Source of the DNA: Botryllus schlosseri
Lineage: Eukaryota
Length of the DNA stretch: 64,000 nt
Assembly (NCBI GenBank): GCA_051294905.1
Contig: CM119372.1
Coordinates: 14,448,001-14,512,000 of the forward strand
Direction: 5' to 3'
Shown here: positions 40,238-41,086 of the stretch, in pieces
How positions within the stretch are numbered: position 1 is the first letter of the stretch
How the letters are laid out: every line of letters starts with the position of its first letter
Program-made: the position numbers and the translations under genes
The notes under the pieces: model-generated
Told to the model about the DNA's origin: nothing
Databases searched by the model: none
The model's input: only the letters and a program-made list of their open reading frames with translations

Positions 40238-40689
40238 AACTTTCCTGTGTAGCGTTGATTCGGCTTTCGTTTGCGCGGACCGTCAATGCTTTGCCAATTA
40301 ACTGGAGGTTTATTAGCTTTCTTCTTTTTAACTTTTTTCTTTGAAGTTTTAGGTGTATGGGGTGGAGTTACCGCTTCGTAATTGCTCCAAATCTCGGATG
40401 TTGCGGGTGGAGGTGTCGCGTCAAATGTGTTATTAATAGCGGGCGCCGCTCCGGGCGGATGCGACGCGGCAATTGTTTCATCGGTAGCGGGCGCTGCGGG
40501 TGCGCGGGACGACGACTTGATCAATTTCTTATTTGCACGTAGATTTCTCAATAGTCTAATGCCGTGTTGAAATAGTGCTAATTTTTCGGTGCGTGTCAAA
40601 TCAGAGTCCCTGATGCTTGCGATATGTTCATTGAATTTCTTTTCGTAGGCGTCTTTTGATTGTAAAGGCGGGAAGTACAATTCACGCAT
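40228..40689 (-). CDS. Hypothetical basic, Pro/Ala/Thr-rich protein, 153 aa
   Basis: Overlaps both neighbours. Low-complexity centre and K-rich NLS-like tail. Confidence 0.7.
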   Translation of the reverse strand: MRELYFPPLQSKDAYEKKFNEHIASIRDSDLTRTEKLALFQHGIRLLRNLRANKKLIKSSSRAPAAPATDETIAASHPPGAAPAINNTFDATPPPATSEIWSNYEAVTPPHTPKTSKKKVKKKKANKPPVNWQSIDGPRKRKPNQRYTGKLWT

Positions 40690-41086
40690 GTCTAGTCAAT
40701 CCACCTAACAGACTTCCAATAATCGGAATTGCAGCACTTAAGATCGCTATAAATCATTAAAGTTAGATCATGAATCGAATCGAATCACATATATATTCAC
40801 CGGATAAAAAGCCACCCTTTTGAAATACTTTTTGCTTCTGTTTTTGAGATTTACAGCACAGCACTTTGCGAATGTTAGTTTTATGCTTCTTCAGTCGTGC
40901 CTTACTCGTACTTGAAATAGCTATATTACCCGAGACAAGATTACGGAGACACTCACACACACAGGTAGTAAAAGCTTTGTGAGTTAATAACTCGTTACGC
41001 TCCTTCTTTTTAGCACTCTTTAACAGCTTCAACTTGATAAGATGATTATTTAAAGTTTTTTTCAAAACACCGCGTGACCTCGCCAT
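40682..41086 (-). CDS. Basic core protein precursor with C-terminal amphipathic helix; spliced (40801-41086 + 40682-40746), 116 aa
   Basis: 54-nt GTGAAT...CTAAC...TTATAG intron at 40747-40800. Splicing gives QKGGFLSAILSAAIPIIGSLLGGLTRHA*. Confidence 0.78.

Follow-up and report, generated by a model that had tools for sequence, protein, structure and literature searches.

The 64,000-nt window analysed here, the whole stretch of Botryllus schlosseri DNA considered (assembly GCA_051294905.1, contig CM119372.1, positions 14,448,001 to 14,512,000 of the forward strand), contains a complete Maverick/Polinton. The minus-strand gene order is polymerase, ATPase, a pm-type gene, a pz-like gene, integrase and a small hydrophobic protein, followed by two probable minor capsid proteins, a pw-like basic protein, the major capsid protein and a protease, the names minor capsid, pz and pw being given by position. 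In coordinates of the window, the features are:

32542..49716: complete Maverick/Polinton, 17,175 bp
32858-33376, 33878-34348, 49011-49298: intronless cargo genes (Bcl-2 family, ubiquitin-conjugating enzyme, death domain)
33737-33809, 34525-34596, 47443-47526, plus strand: tRNA genes Ala-TGC, Pro-TGG and Leu-TAA
35383..35835, minus strand: cysteine protease, candidate processing enzyme
37160..37528, minus strand: another gene for a basic core protein (named pw from its position), carrying the motifs QSGG-D and QRGH-G
37506..38255 and 38252..39073, minus strand: tandem genes of minor-capsid size and position
40228..40689, minus strand: pz-like gene, next after the pm-type gene, named from position only
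40682..40746, minus strand: exon 2 of the pm/GasderminX-type gene, with the remaining hydrophobic amphipathic tail and the stop codon; possibly also an ATG-free 57-nt leader of the pz-like gene
40747..40800, minus strand: putative 54-nt phase-1 GT-AG intron, AT-rich, with three in-frame stops
40801..41086, minus strand: exon 1 of the pm/GasderminX-type gene, with a basic helical domain, QKGG and the first three tail residues
40810..40822 (approximate), minus strand: QKGG-F, predicted site of cleavage by the clan-CE protease of the element, QxGG consensus
45626, 41831, 37124, 34933, minus strand: strong acceptor-like sites, the top-scoring of which (34933) falls within the beginning of a small ORF

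The element carries AGTAGT ends and terminal inverted repeats of 249 nt (91% complementary), and is flanked on both sides by a perfect 6-bp target site duplication, TACGTA. All Maverick-defining genes (integrase, packaging ATPase, protease, double jelly-roll capsid and polymerase) were assigned, the integrase by an rve match and the packaging ATPase by a Pox_A32 match in Pfam. The capsid assignment has a faint match only (E 0.14), the protease matches ASFV pS273R weakly (E 0.0026) in an alignment that pairs the His and Cys motifs, and the 1309-aa polymerase, which has no relevant Pfam match, was named from motifs and position. Neither of the tandem minor-capsid-like genes has a Pfam match, and the pz-like protein gave no significant pairwise match to its positional counterpart at a related locus (L005). 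The frames of the polymerase, ATPase, integrase, capsid and protease run without interruption, as do the other core frames.

The intronless cargo amounts to a cell-death/ubiquitin toolkit, and the three tRNA genes are located in the accessory regions of the element. The insertion point seems to be the TACGTA centre of a palindromic host repeat (32036-32542, 49717-49851), and a second hairpin element adjoins the left end.

The pm-type gene appears as an ORF at 41086-40763, in a frame that meets three stops inside 40800-40747 and, beyond 40747, runs for 21 more codons to a stop at 40684-40682. Stop read-through was rejected as an explanation, given three stops in 18 codons. The 54-nt segment starts with GTGAAT, ends with TTATAG and has a CTAAC motif 20 nt from its 3' end; its GC content is 0.26, against 0.38 and about 0.43 in the exons. 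The ORF end, the exact borders and the three motifs had been called in the original prediction, and both the sequence and the homologues bear them out. Removal of the segment lets the exon-2 stop overlap the ATG of the pz-like gene (40689) by 8 nt, where otherwise a 73-nt gap would stand; an overlap like that of the other genes had been expected, and 7 of the 9 junctions further downstream do overlap. Since the GT..branch..YAG pattern occurs 43 times in the 64-kb window, splice motifs alone are weak evidence, and it is the homology evidence that raises the intron call above chance. The insertion site does not correspond to a classical AG/G proto-splice site. Concerning an introner origin, the 54 nt have no second copy in the window, where just chance matches of 10-12 nt occur.

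Two host genes lie next to each other in the same window, the first of which provides introns for comparison:

about 10400-20400, minus strand: multi-intron host gene for a sodium:solute symporter
21603-23657, minus strand: intronless frame directly upstream of the symporter gene on the same strand, presumably oxysterol-binding-protein-like, as judged from motifs

Nine introns, 51-898 nt in length, interrupt the symporter gene; four do not exceed 76 nt, and the exons of the gene hold one frame over 381 codons. Splice-site matrices, built from these nine host introns only, place the donor and the acceptor of the 54-nt segment in about the top 2% of GT/AG sites of the core region. The donor score is inside the host range, although GTGAAT departs from the commonest host donor, GTGAGT. 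The U2-type features of the segment (GT-AG ends, branch-like motif, size and composition) also fall within the host range.

A homologue search over 1.84 billion representatives recovered 305 matches, the best 150 of which were examined. Anchoring at the GG motif was possible in 118 of these 150, with a median tail length of 23 aa and 17-32 aa in 112 of the 118. Scored against a profile built from 115 homologue tails, exon 2 reaches 20.9, the highest value among 67,448 stop-free 12-mers from the six frames of the whole window, whereas the tail obtained by retaining the intron scores -29.7, under every leave-one-out score of the homologues (-25.3 to 27.3). The original prediction had named a match of homologues to the unspliced C-terminus as the outcome that would count against it; among 166 anchored of 197 proteins, exon 2 proved the better match in 151, tied in 9 and was worse in 6, and the retained tail shares at most 3 of 12 identities with homologues. 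Exon 2 is identical at 13 of 16 residues to each of the two best homologues (P0156 and P0002), the N-domains of which are only 33-36% identical. Exon 2 is thus better conserved than the N-domains, indicating purifying selection on this segment and hence its translation. In six intronless relatives the last exon-1 residues run straight into the exon-2 residues, and the intron borders are exactly GT/AG in the sole register that fits the homologues.

At the DNA level, 13 related loci were available, all derived from two assemblies and hence not independent. Eight are readable at the site and none of these has the intron (four others lack the motif and one was not printed). In six of the loci a long downstream frame begins with an ATG that overlaps the stop, and L005 has the same gene order, ATPase-pm-next gene-integrase. 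The closest relative, P0001 (71% identical), ends in GG-F-L-S-G-K, with its stop two residues past the donor point, the sole such signature among the 118 anchored homologues. This ending fits a gene caller having read past a phase-1 GTAAR donor at the same position, through two residues to a stop, and suggests that the intron is shared. Close relatives, including the source contig of P0001, were not found in viral contigs or metagenome contigs, and further word-index searches recovered no second intron-bearing relative besides P0001. Judged from these comparisons of sequence, a true intron is very probable here, and so is a need for host splicing if the gene is to yield its normal hydrophobic tail; the intron is apparently old and probably common to a diverged relative.

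Four sequencing runs were mapped to 35000-42500. Run X17 is the sole certain RNA run, X1 and X2 being guessed to be RNA. No splice junction at the intron is listed in the four runs; X17, of which about 6% was read, has no reads on the gene, and its reads are confined to both ends of the mapped region. Its real coverage is restricted to 41700-42500, where 97% of the reads continue into unrelated sequence, which suggests a transcribed fragment elsewhere in the genome. Contigs from X1 and X12 span the 54 nt, which thus are not an assembly slip. In X1 one contig (depth 44) crosses the intron unspliced, and in X2 a contig crosses the donor. With a depth of 19-65 over all 30 bins, X1 is fairly evenly covered and looks like DNA; if X1 and X2 are RNA, splicing would be inefficient there. 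Near the start of the integrase frame (40223-40224), contigs from X1, X2 and X12 carry 6 extra bases.

The AlphaFold model of the gene product (pLDDT 85.8, pTM 0.77) has a single good Foldseek match in BFVD, GasderminX of Terrapene adintovirus (TM 0.74, probability 1.00, E 3.4e-3, 25% identity), in a comparison of predicted models on both sides, and the GasderminX cluster is among the nearest models in the ESM Atlas. Among the PDB matches listed by Foldseek none reaches E 0.001, and a profile search against the sequences in PDB found no significant match; no gasdermin domain occurs among the listed Foldseek PDB matches, the PDB profile matches or the listed Pfam matches. A 'Cupiennin' identity was dropped after the fold searches. 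The gene occupies the position between the ATPase and the pz-like gene and encodes a protein X-like tail after GG; this position is that of pm, described as a conserved gene between atp and pz in vertebrate Mavericks (Barreat and Katzourakis 2021, PMC8097293). From position and predicted fold we infer that pm and adintovirus GasderminX are the same gene, and that this is its counterpart here. Fold match, gene position and protein X-like C-terminal part are thus as in the adintovirus protein, the difference being that here the gene is split by an intron. Both the protein X-like C-terminal part and a speculation on membrane activity of GasderminX are already in print (Starrett et al. 2021, PMC8502044).

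The basic domain encoded by exon 1 comprises 92 aa up to GG, with a net charge of +22. Adenovirus pX, a basic protein of the core, binds DNA and is processed by the viral protease (PMC7998265); its precursor, pre-protein X/mu (PF05829; 9lr9 chain E), shares with the present protein a basic segment, an xGG motif and a hydrophobic tail. In contrast to protein X, the N-terminal part here is predicted to be a folded helical domain of ~90 aa, and all profile matches are below the family cut-off: of 50 aligned members, 12 match Pfam Adeno_PX (PF05829) over their GG-tail with E values up to 1, the best of them scoring 22 bits against a gathering cut-off of 25. The window's own protein and the exon-2 piece gave no match to this profile, and one homologue (P0045) matches PDB 9lr9 chain E (PX) weakly (E 0.29). 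Adenovirus protein VI, which had been the model in the original prediction, shares a protease-released amphipathic helix as working principle, but the likeness to protein X (basic part, xGG, hydrophobic C-terminus) is closer. The amphipathic helix of pVI sits near the N-terminus, and no sequence or profile match to protein VI was found in the Pfam or PDB profile searches.

The predicted cleavage site is well conserved, QxGG plus a hydrophobic residue being present in 150 of 188 homologues; of the others, 7 have QxGG plus a small residue, 7 have QxGx-G (some of these probably spurious), 5 have another residue at P4 and 19 have none. The strict adenain rule, with [MIL] at P4 (PMC12517501), had been invoked for this site, and QKGG does not conform to it; it does fit the wider rule (M/I/L/N/Q)XGG-X, which includes Q (PMC6048507). 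Both the QxGG and the QxGx-G form occur in the pw-like protein (QSGG-D and QRGH-G), pointing to the same protease type. As anticipated, splicing yields an amphipathic tail preceded by GG and matching the homologue tails, with a hydrophobic moment of 0.52 for exon 2. The peptide predicted to be released after QKGG is, however, 24 aa long and not ~19 aa as first proposed; the shorter peptide was rejected, as it needs a second cut at an LLGG site present in just 27 of 141 homologue tails. The hydrophobic peptide is a standard feature of the family and no novelty of this element.

Taking these data together, we consider it likely that the intron is constitutive and that its splicing is required for a normal protein X-like core protein, which would later be processed by the protease of the element. 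A spliceosomal intron would have been gained once in the pm/GasderminX gene of a Maverick lineage and carried along since. Host splicing would then produce the usual protein of the family, in which a basic helical domain of ~92 aa is joined through a QxGG site to an amphipathic, hydrophobic tail of ~24 aa. If it behaves as adenovirus pre-protein X does, this protein is probably packaged with the DNA, and the element's own protease may cut after GG, so that the tail is freed or loosened. Once free, the tail might disrupt membranes or serve as a core-to-capsid tether. The anatomy of the gene, its family assignment, the match of its tail and the use of short introns by the host are shown here, while we infer that the intron is spliced out and is old and that the protein is packaged and cleaved. 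Some of the alternatives considered below are compatible with this reading or with one another, and their likelihoods are not all exclusive.

A first alternative concerns the function of the tail, which could act as a membrane-lytic entry peptide resembling protein VI, not as a structural tether resembling protein X. Its properties are compatible with either membrane binding or a structural role. The hydrophobic moment of exon 2 (0.52) and the median over 112 homologue tails (0.43) are consistent with lytic activity, as is a faint match of one homologue to a frog antimicrobial peptide (E 0.71). Starrett et al. place the gene among membrane-active-like proteins (PMC8502044), and a comparable role has been proposed for a cleaved capsid fragment of mavirus. 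Yet the net charge of the tail is just about +1, the sequence likeness is to protein X, the C-terminus of which is not described as lytic in the parts of PMC7998265 consulted, and Welch et al. report that pVI does not cluster with these proteins (bioRxiv 10.1101/341131). A lytic function is therefore retained as a tentative proposal, somewhat more doubtful than probable.

The acceptor of the intron may also have a second use. On a polycistronic transcript, cis-splicing to this single acceptor would complete pm, and spliced-leader trans-splicing to it would generate a capped pz mRNA with a 57-nt leader. This is compatible with the required intron argued for above. The stretch from the acceptor to the pz ATG contains no other ATG, and within 70 nt of this start codon no AG scores higher than the acceptor. 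High-scoring AGs are found shortly before an early in-frame ATG in 7 of 21 cases, as compared with 48 of 646 other AGs (p 8e-4); the seven cover 6 of 15 genes. In Ciona, trans-splicing often takes the first cis acceptor, a tendency that is stronger when the donor is weak (PMC11155486), and operon genes abut directly (PMC2760879). Against dual use, no leader reads occur in the mapped runs, X17 having no reads on the gene; both minor capsid genes, the protease gene and pm itself lack a good acceptor nearby; high-scoring AGs are not in excess on the sense strand (21/667 versus 31/599 antisense); AT-rich spacers could yield the AG enrichment; the training set of nine introns is small; and there is a second AG just 2 nt ahead of the pz start codon. 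In balance, dual use appears unlikely. If true, a virus-like element would be using a gained intron both for resolving its own operon and for adjusting the ratio between two of its particle proteins, and the intron would solve the problem of placing an acceptor before a gene that overlaps the tail of the preceding one.

The polymerase, ATPase and major capsid genes also have strong acceptor-like sites, 12-22 nt ahead of their ATGs. The second AG (40692-40694, minus strand) has a weak acceptor score (1.1); joined to the same donor, it would fuse pm and the pz-like gene in one frame of 249 codons.

Whether the intron acts as a switch is a separate matter. The original prediction had splicing control the production of the peptide, with intron retention giving a non-lytic isoform. 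The intron lies three codons into the tail, so that retention removes almost the whole of it, the donor departs from the commonest host donor, and X1 and X2, if RNA, keep the segment. Neither such control nor a functional isoform from retention is supported. The retained tail is not conserved: it matches no homologue (the maximum of 3 of 12 identities given above), and is 12 aa long here but 2 aa in P0001, where the protein ends two residues past the donor. Moreover, the donor scores inside the host range, all eight relatives with readable DNA lack the intron, and no regulated RNA was seen in the runs mapped (X17 without reads on the gene, X1 and X2 of guessed type). Regulated retention toggling between lytic and non-lytic isoforms is rated very unlikely, given a retained tail that is junk and is not the same in the two genes with the intron.

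That the 54 nt are an unspliced insertion by which the gene was inactivated in this lineage seems highly improbable. In its favour, no junction was observed in the mapped runs (again with X17 without reads on the gene and X1 and X2 of guessed type), the site is not a classical proto-splice site and splice-like motifs are common by chance. Against it, exon 2 is more conserved than exon 1, the 71%-identical P0001 is truncated at the same point, the rest of the Maverick is intact with a perfect target duplication, and the GT/AG borders are exact in the only register that fits the homologues.

The constitutive intron favoured here differs from those described in Polinton-like elements. Dinoflagellate elements are known to harbour introners (PMC11957031), cryptophyte elements group I introns (PMC12220804) and nematode Mavericks cargo genes with introns (bioRxiv 10.1101/2022.07.12.499685), and the core genes of intact vertebrate and nematode Mavericks have been described as intronless, a descriptive and not a defining trait of Mavericks from which the present element deviates. 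Here, a short spliceosomal intron lies in a core gene of an animal element and is probably common to a diverged relative. No report of an intron in the pm/GasderminX gene or in animal Maverick core genes was found in a literature search that covered few subscription papers, and the accessible parts of PMC10748475, PMC11296320 and bioRxiv 10.1101/2025.02.07.637071 hold nothing further on such introns. What is new is an apparently old intron in a Maverick core gene.

An old intron in a core gene would imply that this lineage undergoes nuclear transcription, relies on the spliceosome of the host and is copied at the DNA level with the intron kept. The expression of the tightly overlapping genes of Mavericks is essentially undocumented in the literature surveyed, and the splice junction offers a clean marker to tell RNA from DNA in studies of element expression. 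Annotation from ORFs loses the best-conserved part of the protein and would therefore score such genes as broken. As far as can be told from sequence, the pm/GasderminX family looks like the Maverick counterpart of adenovirus pre-protein X, and its strongly conserved QxGG motif provides a concrete test substrate for the Maverick protease.
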